Part shown: in pieces, positions 1-31,886 of the stretch
How the letters are laid out: each line of letters starts with the position of its first letter
Position numbering within the stretch: the stretch's first letter is position 1
NCBI RefSeq assembly: GCF_001306055.1
Contig: NZ_LGHJ01000012.1
Location: forward strand, 150,001-182,000
Direction: 5' to 3'
Length of the DNA stretch: 32,000 nt
Origin: Bellilinea caldifistulae
Lineage (GTDB): Bacteria > Chloroflexota > Anaerolineae > Anaerolineales > Anaerolineaceae
Program-made: the position numbers and the translations under genes
Notes under the pieces: generated by a model
Seen by the model: only the letters and a program-made list of their open reading frames with translations
Database searches by the model: none
Told to the model about the DNA's origin: nothing

Positions 1-307
1 TTTCGGTGAGAGTCGGAGTACGGGTCGGCGGCACAAATGGCGTAAACGTCTGGGTTGGCGTCCACGTTTGGGTTGGGGTCGGCGTAAATGTGTCGCTCGG
101 CAGGATGAAAAATGTGGGGGTCAGGGTGGGAGGTTGGGGCGGTTCAGCCGTATTGGTAAGCGTGACCGTCGGGGTTGGCGTTGGCTCAGGCACATTCCCG
201 TTGAGCTGCAGAATAAAAAACCCCAAGCAATAGCAGGGTATGGTTGCCAGTATGATAAAAACCAGAATGGATCGGATCCGAGTGCGGCGTTCGGCGCGAA
301 AGGCCAT
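1..307 (-). CDS. Partial CDS (truncated by the window edge): membrane-anchored Pro/Thr-rich protein, function unknown
   Basis: Hand translation of the minus strand from ATG 307-305 gives MAFRAERRTRIRSILVFIILATIPCYCLGFFILQLNGNVPEPTPTPTVTLTNTAEPPQPPTLTPTFFILPSDTFTPTPTQTWTPTQTFTPFVPPTRTPTLTE, open to position 1. There is an in-frame stop upstream at 349-347. The layout is a basic N-terminus, one hydrophobic helix, then a PT-rich linker. It is missing from the ORF track because it has no stop inside the window. Confidence 0.55.
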   Translation of the reverse strand, partial: MAFRAERRTRIRSILVFIILATIPCYCLGFFILQLNGNVPEPTPTPTVTLTNTAEPPQPPTLTPTFFILPSDTFTPTPTQTWTPTQTFTPFVPPTRTPTLTE

Positions 308-378
308 CCAGAAGTTCTCCCAGTACTCCTCGATAATATCACGGCCTTATGGATGTGGCAAGTCGAGTAACGGACAAG

Positions 379-1206
379 TCAGCGGCGTTCATCCGGCATG
401 GGATTCAACTGGGTCGTTTGCATCTCCTTGCGGACGGTTTGGTAAAGGTTCTCGGCTTTCAACTCCCCAATCGTGTAGCAGGGTGCTTGCAGTTGATCGG
501 CCAGGGCCTGCGCCAGTCCCTGATCAAACGCCACATGCTCCATGTTGATGACCACACTGTGGATGTGTTCCTCGGCAATCTGCCGGGCAATTCGATAGGC
601 TTCTTCATGGGGCGGAAGCTTGCCCATTGAAACATTCCCGGCGCCATCGGTGAGGACGATCAGCAGCGGCATCACATCGGGATGCAGCATCCGTTCGCGC
701 ATCAGCACATCGTAAGCCAGTTTCAGGCCGGCCGAAAGCGGCGTCTTGCCTCCTACCGGAATATCGGCAAGTGCCCGCTGTGCCAGCGTAACCGAATTGG
801 TGGGTGGCAGAACCAGCGTGGCGCGGTCTTTCTGGAAAACGATCAACCCGACCCGATCACGACGCTGGTAAGCATCCGTCAAGAGGGAAAGGATGGCTCC
901 CTTGGTCGCCTGCATCCGCTCCGCCACCGCCATAGACCACGAGGCATCCACCAGAAAGAGGATTAAGTTTGCCGCCCGGCGCACCCGCACTTTGCGCATG
1001 TAATCGCTGGGGCGCACCGAAAAAGCCACTCTCTGCCGGTCTTCCTCACGTTCCCGCTGATGGGGAGCAGCCGCCCGTAAAGTAGCATCAAAAGCCAGAT
1101 CATCAGCCTTGCCATAAGAAGGCCGCGATTGGATATAACGGCCGCGTTTTCTTTCGGTGCGGGTACGTGACCGACGCCCGGCAAAACGACGCACCATTTT
1201 ATCCAA
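379..1206 (-). CDS. VWA (von Willebrand A) domain segment of ChlD/BchD C-terminal type. This is the conventional ORF call; it is probably the 3' part of a frameshifted chlD-type gene.
   Basis: MIDAS motif DASWSM (DxSxS) and LTDGAGN are present, in a ChlD/BchD/CobT-like VWA layout. The TTG at 1206 is merely the first start codon in the frame. The frame is open with no ATG/GTG/TTG up to 1392 and there encodes a Pro/Glu-rich linker. Confidence 0.8.
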   Translation of the reverse strand: MDKMVRRFAGRRSRTRTERKRGRYIQSRPSYGKADDLAFDATLRAAAPHQREREEDRQRVAFSVRPSDYMRKVRVRRAANLILFLVDASWSMAVAERMQATKGAILSLLTDAYQRRDRVGLIVFQKDRATLVLPPTNSVTLAQRALADIPVGGKTPLSAGLKLAYDVLMRERMLHPDVMPLLIVLTDGAGNVSMGKLPPHEEAYRIARQIAEEHIHSVVINMEHVAFDQGLAQALADQLQAPCYTIGELKAENLYQTVRKEMQTTQLNPMPDERR

Positions 1207-2462
1207 GGGTGTGTCCAGCCGGCGCGGGTCGAAAGACTGACCGATTTTTACCCGCTCACCGCCATCCCACCATTGAGCGTTCTGTTTTCCAAAAATTTCT
1301 TCCGTCTGTCCGGGTTGAGGAGTTCCCTGAGGGAGCGTTTCCGGACTTTCCGCTCCCTCGTTCAGACTTTTTTTTGCTGATTCTTCTCTTCCTCAACCCT
1401 TTCAACTTCTTCGCGCCGCTGACCGGTAGAACTGGCTCCCTGTAATTGCTCAATCCGGTCTTGCAGTTCTTCCATAGTCACTTCTTCCTGAGAGAAAGGC
1501 CCGCGGCGCAGACGGTGCGGAAGCGCCAGTTCTGCTGCCAGCGCAATATCCCGCCCGTTGATTGCCGTGCGCCCATCGAAGGCGGCCTGCGCCCGGGCGG
1601 CTTTGAGAATGACCAGATCGGCGCGGTGTCCGTCCACATTCAAAGAAGCGGTCAATTGAGCAATTGAAAGCAGATCGCGACTGGTATAACCAACCTGATC
1701 AATCAACCGGCGAGCGCGTTCAATCTGGCGGGAGAGTTCTTCCTCTTTTGGCAGCCACTGCTGACGGAATTTTTCGGGATCGGCTTCAAAAGCCAGATTG
1801 CGTTCCATGATCTGCACCCGTTCGCGCGCATCCCGGATACCGTATATCTCTACGGAAAGGGCAAACCGATCCAGCAGTTGCGGGCGTAAATCACCCTCTT
1901 CGGGGTTCATCGTCCCCACCAGAATAAAGCGGGCCGGATGGCTGAACGAGATGCCTTCGCGCTCTATGATGTTCATCCCCATGGCAGCCGAGTCGAGCAG
2001 CACATCCACCACATGGTCATCCAGCAGGTTGACCTCGTCAATGTAGAGCAGACCGCGGTTGGCAGCCGCCAGCACGCCCGGCTCGAAAGCACGCTCGCCC
2101 TTCTGAATCGCTTTCTCGATATCCAGTGTCCCAACCACTCGATCCTCGGTCGCCGAAATGGGCAGATTGACGAAGGGAGTGGCACGGGTCGCAACCGGCA
2201 GCTCCTCCCCACGAGCGTGCCGCTCACGACATTCGGTACACCATGTAGAAGGACTATCCGGATCACAACCAAAACGGCAGTCGGCCACCACCCGCACATG
2301 CGGTAAAAGCGCTGCCAGCGCCCGTGCCGCGGTGGATTTGGCCGTGCCGCGCTCTCCGCGAATCAGAACCCCCCCGATGCGCGGATCAACCGCGTTCAAG
2401 ACCAGCGCGCGCTTCATGCGTTCCTGACCGACAATGGCAGTAAATGGGTAGATGACTGGCAT
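379..2462 (-). CDS. chlD: Predicted ~694-aa ChlD/BchD-like medium chelatase subunit (AAA+ module, Pro/acidic linker, VWA) produced by a -1 shift at 1374-1368
   Basis: The -1 frame is open from 1392 to the stop at 381-379. The junction would read ...EEKNQQKKSLNEGAESPETLPQGTPQPGQTEEIFGKQNAQWWDGGERVKIGQSFDPRRLDTPLDKMVRRF.... This architecture equals that of ChlD. The 155-nt gap between the two conventional ORFs has no start codon in the VWA frame. Confidence 0.5.
1329..1375 (-). promoter_or_regulatory. Candidate -1 programmed frameshift (or slippage) cassette: A8 run with heptamer A_AAA_AAA, 8-nt spacer, 9-bp GC-rich hairpin
   Basis: The minus-strand mRNA reads CAG CAA AAA AAA GUC UGA. The heptamer at 1374-1368 is in X_XXY_YYZ register and the spacer is GUCUGAAC (1367-1360). 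The stem is GAGGGAGCG (1359-1351) paired perfectly with CGCUCCCUC (1337-1329), with a 13-nt loop. No U-tract follows, so it is not a terminator. Confidence 0.55.
1362..2462 (-). CDS. AAA+ chelatase ATPase of the ChlI/BchI family (zero-frame product, 366 aa)
   Basis: The N-terminus YPFTAIVGQERMKRALVLNAVDP is typical of ChlI/BchI. Walker A is GERGTAKST and Walker B is LLYIDEVNLLDDH. There is a Cys-rich insert CRFGCDPDSPSTWCTEC and a Lys/Glu-rich tail ending on the A8 run. Confidence 0.85.
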   Translation of the reverse strand: MPVIYPFTAIVGQERMKRALVLNAVDPRIGGVLIRGERGTAKSTAARALAALLPHVRVVADCRFGCDPDSPSTWCTECRERHARGEELPVATRATPFVNLPISATEDRVVGTLDIEKAIQKGERAFEPGVLAAANRGLLYIDEVNLLDDHVVDVLLDSAAMGMNIIEREGISFSHPARFILVGTMNPEEGDLRPQLLDRFALSVEIYGIRDARERVQIMERNLAFEADPEKFRQQWLPKEEELSRQIERARRLIDQVGYTSRDLLSIAQLTASLNVDGHRADLVILKAARAQAAFDGRTAINGRDIALAAELALPHRLRRGPFSQEEVTMEELQDRIEQLQGASSTGQRREEVERVEEEKNQQKKV

Positions 2463-2600
2463 GTTCTTAAGAATTTCCTTTTTTCAACAATATCCTGCAA
2501 TCTTTCCTGTGCAAGTTTATCACAAGCCGTTCAGAGAATCAAAGACAATTCGTAGAGGGTACAGCAATTCCATGTCCATAGCGACGTTTAAACAAGAGAA

Positions 2601-2625
2601 AGCACCAGTTTTATGCTCTGGTGCT
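2601..2625 (-). terminator. Candidate intrinsic terminator downstream of arsC
   Basis: Perfect 8-bp stem agcaccag (2601-2608) / ctggtgct (2618-2625) with a 9-nt loop, 22 nt after the arsC stop. On the minus-strand RNA the hairpin is followed by UUCUCUUGUUU. Confidence 0.4.
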
Positions 2626-2646
2626 GAACAAGCCAAAAGCTATGAT

Positions 2647-3081
2647 CTAGTTAACCGGAATGTTCATTTCCTTCAGCCACTCGCGCACCCGCGCATCAAT
2701 TTGATCGCGTATTTCCCGAAATTTTTGCAGGGTTTCCTCCTCGCTACCAACAAACGCTGCCGGGTCTTCAAACGGCCAGTGCATCCGCATTCCCATGCCC
2801 GGAAAAATCGGGCAATTTTCCTCGGCGTTGCTGCATACGGTAATCAAATAGCCAAAATGAACTTTACCCATAAAAGTATCCAGGGTTTTGGAGTAATGCT
2901 GGCTGGTATCTACCCCAATTTCTTCCAAAACTTTGACCGTGTAGGGATTCAATCCCTTCGGCTCTAAACCGGCACTATAGACTTCAAAATGATCCCCGGC
3001 GTATTTACGCAACAAAGCCTCGGCCATCTGGCTGCGTGCTGAATTACCTGTACATAAAAACAGGACTCTCGCTTTGCTCAT
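2647..3081 (-). CDS. arsC: Arsenate reductase, thioredoxin-coupled LMW-PTP type
   Basis: P-loop CTGNSARS (CX5R-S) near the N-terminus, plus the downstream Cys pair in VCSNAEENCP. Together these correspond to the three catalytic/relay cysteines of Bacillus/Staphylococcus ArsC. Length is 144 aa. Confidence 0.8.
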   Translation of the reverse strand: MSKARVLFLCTGNSARSQMAEALLRKYAGDHFEVYSAGLEPKGLNPYTVKVLEEIGVDTSQHYSKTLDTFMGKVHFGYLITVCSNAEENCPIFPGMGMRMHWPFEDPAAFVGSEEETLQKFREIRDQIDARVREWLKEMNIPVN

Positions 3082-3208
3082 CGTTACCTCTTTTGACGAA
3101 TACGGAATAAGGTTTATTCAAAACTTTTTAACCAGAATAACATAAACCACCAGCGATTTGATTAAAAAGGGTATAACATTCCTTTATTGGACGATTAAAA
3201 AGCAGAGG

Positions 3209-4459
3209 TCAAGGGCATTGAATTAACCCCTGCGCCCACAGGCAGCCCCCGCAGGCTGGCTGGGTATTACCAAAACAATCCTCTAAATTTTGATCGGCCA
3301 TTTCACAGGCATTGCAAACGACACAGGGAGCAAAATCAAAAGTCAGCAAACGCCGACGCAAATCCATGTAAATCGGGTCTCGCCAGATTGCAGCAAGACT
3401 CTGCGTGGTTAAATCCCCACAAAAATAAGCCGTGGATCGGCGCAGATGATCATCCAGGTAGCTGTCATGGGTATGCAGCAGTGAAAGGCAGGGACTGACC
3501 TTACCATCCCATCGCACGGAAAGACTGCCCTTATCTATGAACGGACAACGATTACCCGTCCGCAACGGATTCAAACCGCTAACTTCCACTCGAAACCCAT
3601 CCTGAATTGCCGCGGCTAAGGATTGCTGCACTTCCGGCGGGAAATCCGCTCGCGGCAGGTTGATAACCGGCAGCAGACTGGCTTTCTGCGCTTCTGGTTC
3701 ATACTGGGCACGATCATACAGCGACTCTCTGCGTAAATCGCGGGTGTGTGCCAGCACATTGCTGATCGAAAAGCAGGCCGCACCCAACTCGCGCCCCAAT
3801 TCGAGTAAGCGGGGCAGTTCATGGATATTGCGGCGCATGGCCACAAAAGCGATTCCCAATTGAGTGACTGCTCGGCTTTCCTGCCGCAGTTGATGAAAAC
3901 GACGCAAATGGCTCAAAATCTGTTCAAGTGCATCGCCCAACCGCACATCCATGTAAGCCTGCGGAGTGGCCCCATCCAGTGAAACCCACAGCACATTGAC
4001 CCCCGTATCCAGTAAAGCCCGGCAGGCACTTTCTCCCAGCAAGGTACCGTTGGTGATGATCTCCACCTCTGCACCGATTGAGCGAGCTTCGGCAATCATC
4101 TCAAAAATGCGGGGGTGGGCAAGCGGTTCTCCATATCCGCCGAAATAGAGGGTTGGGCGGGGGTAAAAAGTCTCCACCCCTTCCAACAATCGTTCAAAAA
4201 TCTCTTGGCTCATAAAACCGGCCGCTTCGTCCCATACATTTCGAACGCAGGTACGGCATTGCAAATTGCACACATTGGTCACCTCCACATAGACCCGTTC
4301 CAGAAATGTAACCGGCCGATAGAGAATGAGCTCCCGTCCGTTTTCTTCCAAGATGGTCTGTTCACCGGCCTGTAAACCGAACCGCTCAGCAACCGCCGCA
4401 GGAATTTCCAGTTTCCCCTCCCGATTCACCCGCACCCAATAGCGCTTTTGACTCATCAA
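3209..4459 (-). CDS. Radical SAM enzyme with a C-terminal SPASM-type Cys cluster domain and an N-terminal SpoVT/AbrB-like domain
   Basis: The CX3CX2C motif is in VTNVCNLQCRTCVRN and the GGE-type motif is GGYGEPLAHP. C-terminal Cys clusters are CPFIDKG...VSPC and CVVCNACEMADQNLEDC...CGGCLWAQGLIQCP. The N-terminus KLEIPAAVAERFGLQAGEQTILEENGRELILYRP resembles an AbrB swapped-hairpin. The first codon is TTG (4459), with ATG at 4456. Confidence 0.85.
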   Translation of the reverse strand: MMSQKRYWVRVNREGKLEIPAAVAERFGLQAGEQTILEENGRELILYRPVTFLERVYVEVTNVCNLQCRTCVRNVWDEAAGFMSQEIFERLLEGVETFYPRPTLYFGGYGEPLAHPRIFEMIAEARSIGAEVEIITNGTLLGESACRALLDTGVNVLWVSLDGATPQAYMDVRLGDALEQILSHLRRFHQLRQESRAVTQLGIAFVAMRRNIHELPRLLELGRELGAACFSISNVLAHTRDLRRESLYDRAQYEPEAQKASLLPVINLPRADFPPEVQQSLAAAIQDGFRVEVSGLNPLRTGNRCPFIDKGSLSVRWDGKVSPCLSLLHTHDSYLDDHLRRSTAYFCGDLTTQSLAAIWRDPIYMDLRRRLLTFDFAPCVVCNACEMADQNLEDCFGNTQPACGGCLWAQGLIQCP

Positions 4460-17103: not shown

Positions 17104-19398
17104 TTGGAACATCTGGATTTTTGGCGCTTAAATCCTTATACTGATTTAAGGATGAGTGTACTGGAGCAACCTTTCGTTGGCGGGACAGGCGAAGCCCCTC
17201 TTTTACCGCTTGGGCGGTATTTGCCATTGCTTCCCGGCGGGATGATCGGTGCCTGGCTCAAACAGAACGTGCCGGTGGGAGCGTGGCTTTTGGACCCGAT
17301 TGGGGCTCACCCCCAGCTGGCACTGGAAGCAGCCCGGGATGGCTATCGCATTCTCATCACCAGTAACAACCCGATTCTCTCCTTCATGCTGGAAATCCTC
17401 GCAGCCGCCCCTCCCCGCCGCGAGTTCGAAGCCGCTCTGGCTGCCTTGGCAGCCAGCAAACGCGGTGAAGAACGCCTTGAACGACATCTCCTCAGTCTTT
17501 ATCACACCCCATGTGCTGCCTGCGGTCAACTGGTTGCGGCGCAAGCCTTCATCTGGCAAAGCGAACCGCTGCGGATGGTAAGCCGAATTTACCGCTGCCC
17601 GTCCTGCGGCGATGAGGGCGAACGCCCGATTACCCCGGCAGACATTGAAAAGCTCAGCCTGCCCGGCAACGATGCTCTCCACCGTGCCCGTGCCCTATCC
17701 CGGGTGATCGGCGACCCGTCAGCGAGCTCGGCTGAACAGGTTGGCGAAGCCCTCAAAACCTACCTGCCGCGCCCCCTGTATGTACTGACCACGCTCATCA
17801 ACAAGATAGATACCCTCGCCTTACCCGAAGACCGTAAACGCTTGCTGACCGCCCTGCTGATTCAGGTTTGTGACGAGGGTAATACCCTCTGGCAACACCC
17901 GGCAGTCCGCCCCCGCCCGCGTCAGCTGACCATCCCCACTCAATTCCGGGAAAACAACCTCTGGCTGGCTCTGGAAAATGCCGTAGAGGTGTGGAGTTCT
18001 CCTGCTCAGCCGGTACAAATTTCGGTTTACCCGCAATTACCGGAGGGGGCGGGTATCTGTCTGTTCCGCGGAAGGATTTCTGCCCTGCCGCCTTCGACCA
18101 TGCCAATTCAACCGGCGGCGATCATCAGCATTCTCCCCCGGCCCAATCAGGCATTTTGGACTCTCAGCGCCCTGTGGTCCGGATGGCTGTGGGGCCGAGA
18201 GGCTGTTCAGCCGCTGCGCGGTGCATTGGAACGCCGCCGTTACGACTGGTACTGGATGTCCCATGCGATTCAACGTGCCTTACGCGAGCTTTCCCGCCAC
18301 ATCCCCGCAGGTACGCCTTTTTTTGCACTGGCCAGCGAGACTACACCGGGTTTTCTTTTGGCCGCCTTTCTCGGCCCGTTGACGGCTGGTTTCACCTTGA
18401 AAGGATTTTCGCTGGAACGCGAAAGCGAGTTGGCCCAATTTCACTGGCAATCCGTGCCAACGTCACAACCCGCCCCCGCTCCAATCAGCCCAAAACCGCT
18501 TCTGCAAAATGCTCTCCAGGGCTATCTGCAAGCGCGCGGAGAGCCAGCCCGCTACCTGACTTTGTTTGCCGCTGCTTTATCTACGCTGCTCGAAAACGGC
18601 CTGCTCCCTCGCCGGACGGAGGAAATTGCCCCCGACGATCTCGCCCGCCTGCAAGCCAAAGTGGGAGAGGTGCTGGAAGACCGTCGTCTTTTCGTCCGTT
18701 ATGCCGGACACGGTCAGGCTGAAGAAAGCGGTGCCTGGTGGTTGAGCGATCCGCACCCAGCCAGCCTGCCTCTGGCCGACCGGGTAGAAAAAGAGGTTGT
18801 CAAATTTCTCGTCCAGCATAAACTCATCCAGCGCAATCAACTGGAAAGCAGTCTTTACCCCCTGTTTCCGGGTTTGTTGGTGCCGTCTCGGCCGCTGATC
18901 ACAGCGGTGTTGGAATCGTATGCCTCGCCGGTCAACGGGCAGGCTCACCAGTGGCAACTGCGCCCAGAAGATGAGCCGGCCCGCCGCCGAACCGATCTCA
19001 CCAATGCGGCTCACAGCCTCAAACTCATTGGTGAAAGATTGGGCTTCCGCATCGAAGGCGATCAACCGATGGTCTGGCTGAACGAAAAGGATGAGGCGGT
19101 TTATTTGTTTTTCCTGCTGGCAAGCAGCATCATCAGCCCGTATGTGTATCAAGCCCACAGGGCGCCGCCTTCTCGCTGTGTCCTGGTTCTGCCGGGCGGC
19201 CGTACCGGGCTGCTTGGTTTCAAAATACGCCGCGACCCCCGATTGAGCGAAGCCTTCCAAAAAGGCTGGCGCTTACTTAAATTCCGTCACCTGCGTTATT
19301 TGAGCGAATACCCCTACCTCTCCGAGAATCAATGGGAAGACCTGCTGAACGGCGACCCCCCGCAATGGGAGGACGCCGTTCAGATGAGAATGTTCTGA
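17104..19398 (+). CDS. Large hypothetical protein with a Zn-ribbon; resembles a catalytically degenerate COG1743-type (Zn-ribbon) DNA methylase
   Basis: WLLDPIGAHPQLALEAARDGYRILITSNNPIL resembles the methylase pattern LDPFAGGGS..LEA.RLG....DLNPVA. The Zn-ribbon is CAACG...CPSCG. IISILPRPNQAFWTLSALWSGWLWGR resembles DPPYYDN..Y..LSDFFYVWLKR but has lost DPPY. The likely true start is ATG 17152 (MSVLEQ) rather than TTG 17104. Confidence 0.65.
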   Translation: MEHLDFWRLNPYTDLRMSVLEQPFVGGTGEAPLLPLGRYLPLLPGGMIGAWLKQNVPVGAWLLDPIGAHPQLALEAARDGYRILITSNNPILSFMLEILAAAPPRREFEAALAALAASKRGEERLERHLLSLYHTPCAACGQLVAAQAFIWQSEPLRMVSRIYRCPSCGDEGERPITPADIEKLSLPGNDALHRARALSRVIGDPSASSAEQVGEALKTYLPRPLYVLTTLINKIDTLALPEDRKRLLTALLIQVCDEGNTLWQHPAVRPRPRQLTIPTQFRENNLWLALENAVEVWSSPAQPVQISVYPQLPEGAGICLFRGRISALPPSTMPIQPAAIISILPRPNQAFWTLSALWSGWLWGREAVQPLRGALERRRYDWYWMSHAIQRALRELSRHIPAGTPFFALASETTPGFLLAAFLGPLTAGFTLKGFSLERESELAQFHWQSVPTSQPAPAPISPKPLLQNALQGYLQARGEPARYLTLFAAALSTLLENGLLPRRTEEIAPDDLARLQAKVGEVLEDRRLFVRYAGHGQAEESGAWWLSDPHPASLPLADRVEKEVVKFLVQHKLIQRNQLESSLYPLFPGLLVPSRPLITAVLESYASPVNGQAHQWQLRPEDEPARRRTDLTNAAHSLKLIGERLGFRIEGDQPMVWLNEKDEAVYLFFLLASSIISPYVYQAHRAPPSRCVLVLPGGRTGLLGFKIRRDPRLSEAFQKGWRLLKFRHLRYLSEYPYLSENQWEDLLNGDPPQWEDAVQMRMF
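17127..17150. promoter_or_regulatory. Inverted repeat CTTAAATC-N8-GATTTAAG abutting the ATG at 17152
   Basis: Perfect 8-nt arms at 17127-17134 and 17143-17150. It shares the TTAAATC/GATTTAA core with the 17019-17058 repeat and covers the ribosome-binding region of the 764-aa gene. Confidence 0.3.
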
Positions 19399-30790: not shown

Positions 30791-30802
30791 TCCCTGGGTT
30801 TG

Positions 30803-31886
30803 ATGTTTAGCCTGTTTTCTTCCCATCTTGCCCAAATTTCCCGCCGCGAATTTCTCAAACTCTCCGGCATCGGTGCGCTGGCATTTTTCAGCCTGCCCCT
30901 GCGCCTGGATCGGCTGCTTTCTACCAGACTGCCGGAAACCGAAGTGTCGCTGCCCCGCCTTGGGCGCGTAACTGCCCCCAAAATTGATGGCTATCAACGA
31001 CCCTCTTTCAATGCCGAGCTCAAAAAAACTTACTGGCGGGATTTGGTGCTGTCCATCACCGAAGTGACCCTCGGCGGGGAAGATTCGGGCCACAATCGCA
31101 TCTGGTATGGGGTTGAGGATGGCGTTTATGTCCATTCCGGCGATATTCAACCGGTGAATCTGCAAAAGCAATCTCCGGTGGCCAGCCTGCCGGAAGGCGG
31201 AGCCCTGGCCGAGGTCAGTGTACCGTTCACCGACACCCTGTGGGATTTACGCCGCCAGGACTGGTTTTCTTATCGCCTGTACTACGGAACTACCTACTGG
31301 GTGGACCAAATCCAGCAGGATCAAAACGGGAAATTCTGGTACCGCATCCGCGATGACAAGTGGAAAATCTTTTATTACGCGGACGCCACCCACCTGCGGA
31401 TTGTCAAGGAGGAGGATGTCGCCCCCCTCTCGGCAGATGTGCCGCCGAACGAAAAACTCATCGAAATTCATCTGCCTGAACAAATCGTCATCGCCTACGA
31501 GCGAGAGCAGGCAGTTTTCATGGCGCGCACTTCCACCGGCGCCCGCTTTATAGATGGCGATTACCGCACCCCCCCCGGGAATTTACATCACCAACCGCAA
31601 ACGCCCCTCCCGCCACATGGCAGCCGGCGACCGGGCCGCCCCCAACAGTTACGATTTACCGGGTGTGCCGTGGGTGTGCTACCTGATGGACAACGGCATC
31701 TCTTTTCACGGCACCTACTGGCACAACAATTTCGGCAGGCCGCGCAGTCATGGCTGCATCAACCTGTCCATCCCCGACTCGCGTTGGGTATACCGCTGGA
31801 CTCACCCGCCTGTCCCTCTACAAAAGGTGACTCTCATCGAAAAAACCGGTACAATGGTTAAAGTAATAGACAAGCCGATGGCTTGA
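30803..31886 (+). pseudogene. Second L,D-transpeptidase (Tat-type signal + YkuD domain), split by a +1 frame change at a C8 run
   Basis: Frame A (30800-31861) has MFSLFSSHLAQISRREFLKLSGIGALAFF (SRRxFLK twin-arginine motif) and reads sensibly to ...FIDGDYRTPPG, then becomes low-complexity. Frame B (31554-31886) carries PGIYITNRK...HGTYWHNNFGRPRSHGCINL. The two frames join at CCCCCCCC 31569-31576, and removing one C gives ...DYRTPPGIYITNRK.... Confidence 0.65.

Follow-up and report, generated by a model that had tools for sequence, protein, structure and literature searches.

The closest described system to the gene analysed here is the fs-chlD family, reportedly named in a 2020 paper by Antonov (Mol Biol Evol, doi 10.1093/molbev/msaa081), a precedent that the initial annotation of this DNA had cited and whose citation exists. 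A "magnesium chelatase" −1 frameshift cluster was described with reporter validation in 2013 (Antonov et al., NAR, PMC3711429), and fs-chlD was extended to Anaerolineae in 2022 (Kuznetsov et al., PMC9227772). The cluster combines a ChlI-like open reading frame (ORF), a following VWA ORF in the −1 frame, a poly-A site that ends the first ORF (ORF1), a downstream RNA structure and two products. The same combination, its products being predicted, occurs in a 32,000-nt stretch of Bellilinea caldifistulae DNA (NZ_LGHJ01000012.1, positions 150,001–182,000), called the window below, where a chelatase-type locus occupies positions 379–2462 of the minus strand. The fs-chlD literature examined does not mention B. 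caldifistulae, which is a cultured species of the Anaerolineae. Judged from its sequence, the gene very probably has two products, a short ChlI-like ATPase and a long ChlD-like protein, the latter arising through a one-base backward slip on a run of eight adenines (A8). All the features that define the published fs-chlD recoding family and can be tested at the sequence level are present at this locus.

ORF1 begins with an ATG and runs from 2462 to 1362 on the minus strand, the strand of all features of the gene described below. Its zero-frame product is a ChlI-like AAA+ ATPase of 366 aa whose acidic tail has ...NQQKKV as its last residues, and the same protein is recorded for B. caldifistulae as WP_061919387.1, GAP12035.1 and KPL76350.1, without a difference. 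The 3′ end of ORF1 reads CAG CAA AAA AAA GUC UGA. Here the A8 run (1375–1368) contains the zero-frame slippery heptamer A_AAA_AAA (1374–1368), and the UGA stop (1364–1362) lies one codon past the heptamer. An 8-nt spacer, GUCUGAAC (1367–1360), separates the heptamer from a putative stimulatory hairpin (1359–1329), whose arms GAGGGAGCG (1359–1351) and CGCUCCCUC (1337–1329) form a perfect 9-bp stem around a 13-nt loop (1350–1338). The hairpin appears in the minimum free energy (MFE) fold and the centroid fold alike. The initial annotation had described this same anatomy, and the sequence bears out every coordinate that it gave for the end of ORF1, the register of the heptamer, the stop and the 366-aa length. 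Its description of the stem, spacer and loop agrees with the folding, and a terminator can be rejected for this hairpin, as it had concluded, given that no U-tract follows and no terminator-like site is called there. An upstream Shine-Dalgarno stimulator of the dnaX kind was also considered and rejected: the window has a GAGG some 15 nt ahead of the site, which relatives do not conserve. An Rfam 15 scan, frameshift elements and riboswitches included, gives no gathering-score match anywhere in the window and none at E ≤ 1 in positions 1–3300.

An open −1 frame extends from 1392 to its stop at 381–379, and its first ATG, GTG or TTG codon is the TTG at 1206; these limits, like the linker peptide between them, are those that the initial annotation had reported. 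The start-less stretch from 1367 to 1207 could be translated solely by a frame change, and it carries the motif ...F..(N)WWDGG..V..G..F.PRRLDTPLDK at about 1302–1207. The rest of the −1 ORF (1206–379) comprises an AAPxQ-type segment and a VWA (integrin-I-like) domain at about 963–508, and ends with the stop. Pfam shows VWA_2/VWA matches in this ORF, and precomputed annotation places the Pfam family PF26791 in orthologous ORFs. The predicted trans-frame product has 694 aa, consisting of ORF1 less its last residue followed by SLNEG..., with SLNEGAESPETLPQGTPQPGQTEEIFGK as its junction peptide. Against the NCBIfam model TIGR02442 (putative cobaltochelatase, of fused ChlI-ChlD type) it scores 800.8 bits, above the curated cut-off of 779.45, with an unbroken alignment over profile positions 1–640 of 641; ORF1 by itself reaches 515 bits, below that cut-off. 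In the fusion, residues 499–640 match 2x31_A, the VWA chain of BchD.

Comparison with relatives covers 161 loci, made up of the window, 80 species-representative genomes and 80 metagenome contigs. In all 161, ORF1 ends in a run of at least seven adenines with A_AAA_AAA in the zero frame, and the run length is A7 in 16 loci, A8 in six, A9 in 97, A10 in 40, and A12 and A14 in one each. The zero-frame stop follows 0–4 nt past the run in 137 of the 147 loci counted. Where the frame of the VWA ORF can be resolved (158 loci), it is −1 in 154 and +1 in three; one locus has a broken ORF, and an in-frame fusion never occurs. Run length thus differs among lineages while the frame relation is kept, a pattern that fits selection for a −1 recoding site and not random homopolymer errors. 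The exceptions are L048, L087, L121 and L013, three of which have a +1 VWA ORF (runs of A9, A10 and A12) and one of which is broken further downstream; they could be homopolymer-length errors or real run-length variation.

These data also bear on an artefact, which the initial annotation had listed as a homopolymer error hiding a true A9 and a plain fused gene, and on the related case of a recent frameshift pseudogene. Homopolymers are indeed error-prone, and the four deviating loci among 158, with their +1 or broken VWA ORFs, resemble such errors. However, 3,962 nt shared by the window and scaffold DF967971.1 of GCA_001050215.2 contain 0 mismatches, A8 and hairpin being identical, and an independent JGI metagenome contig with 3 mismatches over 1,273 nt has the same A8 and hairpin. 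The 154 loci that keep the −1 relation come from varied species and sequencing technologies, with both ORFs intact and conserved. Furthermore, the 120 closest clusters from a collection of 5.8 billion proteins are all of the short length (120/120 at 362–391 aa) and have a KK(K)x end after an otherwise hypervariable acidic tail, and a fusion of about 690 aa is absent among them. The homopolymer-error explanation is accordingly rejected, and artefact or decay of any kind is extremely improbable at this locus.

The linker bears on a further possibility, namely two ordinary genes without any frame change, in which the VWA protein would start at TTG 1206 or ATG 1197, or arise by re-initiation past the ORF1 stop. 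Gene callers do annotate the locus in this way: in GCA_001050215.2 (scaffold DF967971.1; L170 2766–3584) the VWA ORF stands as its own 272-aa gene from an internal ATG, so that the recoding is unannotated and the conserved linker is left untranslated. Yet about 160 nt after the run contain no start codon, no Shine-Dalgarno-like sequence is seen by eye before TTG 1206 or ATG 1197, and the TIGR02442 profile crosses the junction without a break. The peptide of the start-less stretch is itself conserved. In the −1 frame of all relatives, a variable Pro/acidic segment after the run leads into the family motif ...F...(N)WW[DE]GG.KVK.GE.F.PR[KR]L[DN]TPLDK..R..GRRS.T.TERK. The first possible start of the −1 ORF varies widely among loci and in several lies beyond this motif, at residues 92, 93, 114 and 130, which rules out independent initiation as a general route to the VWA protein. 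Two separately initiated genes are thus very unlikely. What the analysis shows is how the site is built, that relatives conserve it, that the peptide of the start-less −1 stretch is conserved, and that the fusion matches the family model. The proposal of the initial annotation that one chlD-type locus yields I-like and D-like products by a −1 shift is supported by the 161 loci and the end-to-end TIGR02442 match.

The window belongs to a Bellilinea-like A8 clade (L001, L081–083 and L161–L168) with 12 distinct sequences, and the hairpin is kept in all 12. Across them 96% of stem cells are paired, with one compensatory change from G-C to A-U (L168) and two G·U changes. One mismatch is tolerated in three sequences, whose stem gains two pairs instead. 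The arms of the hairpin encode EGA and TLPQ, within a linker that is hypervariable outside the clade, so coding constraint alone is an unlikely cause of their conservation. Among the features that the initial annotation had singled out for comparison, the heptamer and the start-less linker peptide are therefore conserved across relatives, and the hairpin is conserved in the A8 clade and missing from most A9/A10 relatives.

The hairpin of the window may possibly extend to an H-type pseudoknot. Its tentative second stem (1346–1308) would pair GUCCGG in the loop (1346–1341) with CCGGAC (1313–1308), 15 nt 3′ of the first stem. The duplex between loop and 3′ site is predicted at −12.5 kcal/mol in the window and beats shuffled sequences (p 0.003–0.005). 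In five other lineages the loop also pairs with this 3′ site, using different sequences (GCCCAGG/CCUGGGC in L163, for instance), and all six duplexes outperform shuffles (loop shuffled, p 0.001–0.02). Pairing of the loop with its cognate 3′ partner is more stable than with non-cognate partners (p 0.016 over 10 lineages, 0.058 over six). On the strength of these per-sequence and cognate comparisons the pseudoknot is retained as a tentative idea. Other observations count against it: the pairing is absent in four lineages, and a test of covariation in a fixed register finds 65–71% of cells paired with few double changes, the register itself differing between lineages. A conserved Pro-Gly codon pair at the 3′ site counts against it too.

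Downstream structure and run length vary together across the family. The comparison takes the 55 nt after the run in distinct sequences, does not correct for kinship, and draws its short runs from few clades. The A7/A8 loci (n = 28) have a mean z of −2.1 and a mean MFE of −19.1 kcal/mol, compared with −0.5 and −11.9 kcal/mol for loci with A9 or longer (n = 134), and Mann-Whitney tests uncorrected for phylogeny give p 1.5e-9 for z and 7.5e-13 for MFE. A stable hairpin stands 6–8 nt past the run in the short-run loci, and most long-run loci are without one. The hairpin of the A7 clade, CGCCGG(A)...(U)CCGGCG, differs from that of the A8 clade, and at least two unrelated hairpins thus accompany short runs. 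Published reporters for three genes of the family in E. coli show frameshifting of 10% for A7, 40% for A9 and 63% for A11 (PMC3711429). The presence of hairpins at short runs, taken with this rise in efficiency with run length, suggests that downstream structure compensates for a short A-run. In the largest A9 clade (for example L005, L015, L021, L022 and L089), a near-invariant ACUUAAARCUCGAAGAUGA, encoding NLKLEDE, stands right after the run in the otherwise variable linker, and no stable fold is predicted there.

The A8 homopolymer of the window could also produce the fusion through transcriptional slippage, in which RNA polymerase adds one A, some mRNAs carry A9, and the ChlD-like fusion is read in frame by ribosomes that do not slip. 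Several features suit this explanation. The run is a pure homopolymer, and most relatives have A9–A10, lengths known from slippage in Thermus dnaX, without a stable 3′ structure. Reporter efficiency in the family climbs with run length, and the 2013 paper leaves the choice between the ribosomal and the transcriptional mechanism (PRF versus PTR) open at poly-A (PMC3711429). Both mechanisms give the same protein, so the comparative data fit them equally and neither these data nor proteomics can separate the two. The run of the window, however, is no longer than A8, and it is precisely in the A7/A8 lineages that a conserved hairpin occurs 6–8 nt 3′ of the run. A 3′ hairpin can stall a ribosome, and it has not yet been transcribed when RNA polymerase sits on the run. 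Since the hairpin cannot act on a polymerase that has not made it, ribosomal frameshifting is favoured for the A8 locus. The heptamer also stays in the zero-frame register throughout, a weak argument since two of the three registers would serve. The A7 register, with A_AAA_AAA in 16 of 16 A7 loci, was considered as strong proof of ribosomal slippage and dropped for the same reason and because these loci represent only about three lineages. Overall, the locus is probably an fs-chlD-type programmed −1 recoding site at which ribosomal frameshifting on A8 is the favoured mechanism, and slippage by the polymerase is a considerably less likely source of the fusion. The balance between ribosome and polymerase may differ in the A9/A10 relatives.

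Under ribosomal frameshifting, most ribosomes would terminate at the UGA at 1364–1362 and release the 366-aa ChlI-like AAA+ protein. Some would pause with two tRNA-Lys on A_AAA_AAA at 1374–1368, stalled by the hairpin 8 nt downstream, which may be a pseudoknot. These paused ribosomes would slip back by one base, read AGU CUG AAC... and go on to translate the Pro/acidic linker and then the VWA domain. They would thereby make a 694-aa ChlD-like protein that shares the N-terminal AAA+ module with the shorter product, and the two proteins may form an I/D-type AAA+ complex. In the initial annotation, such a shift was proposed to fix the ratio of the two products, which it may do. That the ribosome rather than the polymerase slips, how efficiently it does so, which stoichiometric role the shift has and what the products do in the cell are points that we infer.

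Several points weigh against ribosomal recoding of a chelatase gene. The homopolymer also permits slippage by RNA polymerase, and most A9/A10 relatives lack a stable downstream structure. Conservation of the hairpin is partly confounded by coding, with one truly compensatory change only, and the trend between run length and hairpin rests on few clades without correction for phylogeny. The local fold at the junction is only about 2 standard deviations better than shuffles (z −1.8 to −2.2). A8 runs are likewise no more frequent in the window than expected, at 4 observed and 3.9 expected. Run and hairpin are singly unremarkable by chance, and their significance comes from their placement and their conservation in relatives. 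Finally, no cobN/chlH, B12 gene or cobalamin riboswitch lies nearby in the 32-kb window, which leaves a chelatase role unsupported at this locus.

Three other recoding systems resemble the site in part. E. coli dnaX likewise makes two proteins that share an N-terminal AAA+ module from one gene, using a Lys-codon heptamer and a 3′ hairpin at similar spacing, and has a stoichiometric rationale. Its shift yields the shorter product, whereas the shift in B. caldifistulae would yield the longer one, and its heptamer is A_AAA_AAG with an upstream Shine-Dalgarno sequence, whereas the B. caldifistulae heptamer ends in A and has no conserved internal Shine-Dalgarno sequence. In Thermus thermophilus dnaX, transcriptional slippage on A9 gives two products from an A-run in an AAA+ gene, and most relatives examined here, with A9–A10 and no structure, are similar. 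The B. caldifistulae locus differs from this gene in combining A8 with a 3′ hairpin that is conserved, and this combination favours the ribosome. Slippage of the Thermus dnaX type takes about nine or more A/T and is marked by transcripts of heterogeneous run length; the window has A8, and the relatives mostly have A9–A10. IS3-family elements, such as IS911 orfA-orfB with A_AAA_AAG and a structure, join an upstream ORF to a start-less ORF through a shift that gives the longer product, and their unshifted short product is functional too, a property counted here as common to the chelatase-like locus. These elements are mobile and encode unrelated protein families, in contrast to the chromosomal, housekeeping-type chelatase-like gene.

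At the protein level, the two predicted products resemble the motor of magnesium chelatase. Pfam matches in ORF1 are AAA_lid_2, Mg_chelatase and AAA_5, and residues 3–325 match the ChlI/BchI structures 8osf, 6l8d and 1g8p with E values of 1e-98 to 1e-106. The Walker A motif of ORF1 (residues 36–43, about 2357–2334) is GERGTAKS, with Ala in place of the consensus P-loop Gly before Lys, and this form is common to 116 of 120 homologues. Both the AAA+ and the VWA parts of the BchI/BchD motor (1g8p, 2x31) are matched, but scores remain below the equivalog cut-offs for BchI-ChlI (TIGR02030, 436–439 versus 466.95) and BchD-ChlD (TIGR02031, 444.8 versus 499.55), and the gene for a large subunit is absent from the window. 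As the initial annotation had stated, no CobN/ChlH-like protein is found there, with 20 other large ORFs scanned against Pfam. Aerobic cobaltochelatases of the CobN-ChlI-ChlD type come with CobN, B12 genes and a riboswitch; the 32-kb window contains none of these, the riboswitch being sought with Rfam, and no large neighbour is conserved in 80 genomes.

Gene neighbourhood was also examined as a functional clue and set aside, since ORF clustering over 81 loci returned just syntenic housekeeping genes (an S1-domain protein and M19 and M42 peptidases), with no large subunit and no universal partner besides the two ORFs. The published cluster shows the same absence: it was described in Anaerolineaceae genomes without cobN or chlH, and fs-chlD genes are reported from Anaerolinea, Ornatilinea, Longilinea, Levilinea and Brevefilum, Anaerolineae whose genomes have neither a large subunit nor chlorophyll or B12 pathways, the function of the I and D pair being called unknown (PMC9227772). 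At the B. caldifistulae locus, "cobalt chelatase subunit" is therefore a family label and not a demonstrated role.

These results do not overturn current understanding. What they add is the relation between run length and hairpin, a pseudoknot proposed tentatively, and the observation that the deposited genome leaves the gene unannotated as a recoded one. For annotation, the correct product would be the 694-aa trans-frame protein, where the deposited genome splits the gene and truncates the VWA protein, an error repeated in more than 150 Anaerolineae assemblies. B. caldifistulae offers a cultured example of fs-chlD in a lineage without a known large chelatase subunit, and thereby a usable model for an I/D complex alone. 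The relatives form a natural series from A7 to A14, with and without hairpin, that can serve to separate ribosomal from transcriptional slippage. A broader and more doubtful idea is that one family might switch in evolution between A7/A8 with a 3′ hairpin or pseudoknot, using the ribosome, and A9–A10 without structure, using the homopolymer and perhaps polymerase slippage, and that in strictly anaerobic Anaerolineae the ChlI/ChlD-like pair might act without CobN/ChlH and outside tetrapyrrole metal insertion.

The surroundings of the gene show several minor features. Other ORFs in the window encode a low-molecular-weight phosphatase, a radical SAM/SPASM protein, homoserine dehydrogenase, folate-pathway enzymes, a histidine kinase and a penicillin-binding protein, among others, and two of the 20 scanned large ORFs and one further ORF have no Pfam match. 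Two long ORFs, both only putative genes, give no Pfam match at E ≤ 1e-5: 17104–19398 (plus strand, 764 aa), where several smaller ORFs of either strand overlap, and 30800–31861 (plus strand, 353 aa). Directly upstream of the chelatase-like gene lies an LMWPc gene (low-molecular-weight phosphatase/ArsC-like; 2647–3081, minus strand), also present in L161–L164 and L170. This neighbour is kept among close relatives only; L163 and L164 also have a heavy-metal P-type ATPase gene further upstream. A radical SAM and SPASM gene (3209–4459, minus strand) stands two genes upstream in the same orientation, in the isolate scaffold as well, with no link to the chelatase-like gene found. Downstream of the VWA stop, an ORF at 1–378 (minus strand) that runs off the window encodes a hydrophobic segment and, after it, a low-complexity stretch rich in Pro and Thr, and a promoter-like site, TTGCCA-17-TATTAT, is located at 361–333 on the same strand.

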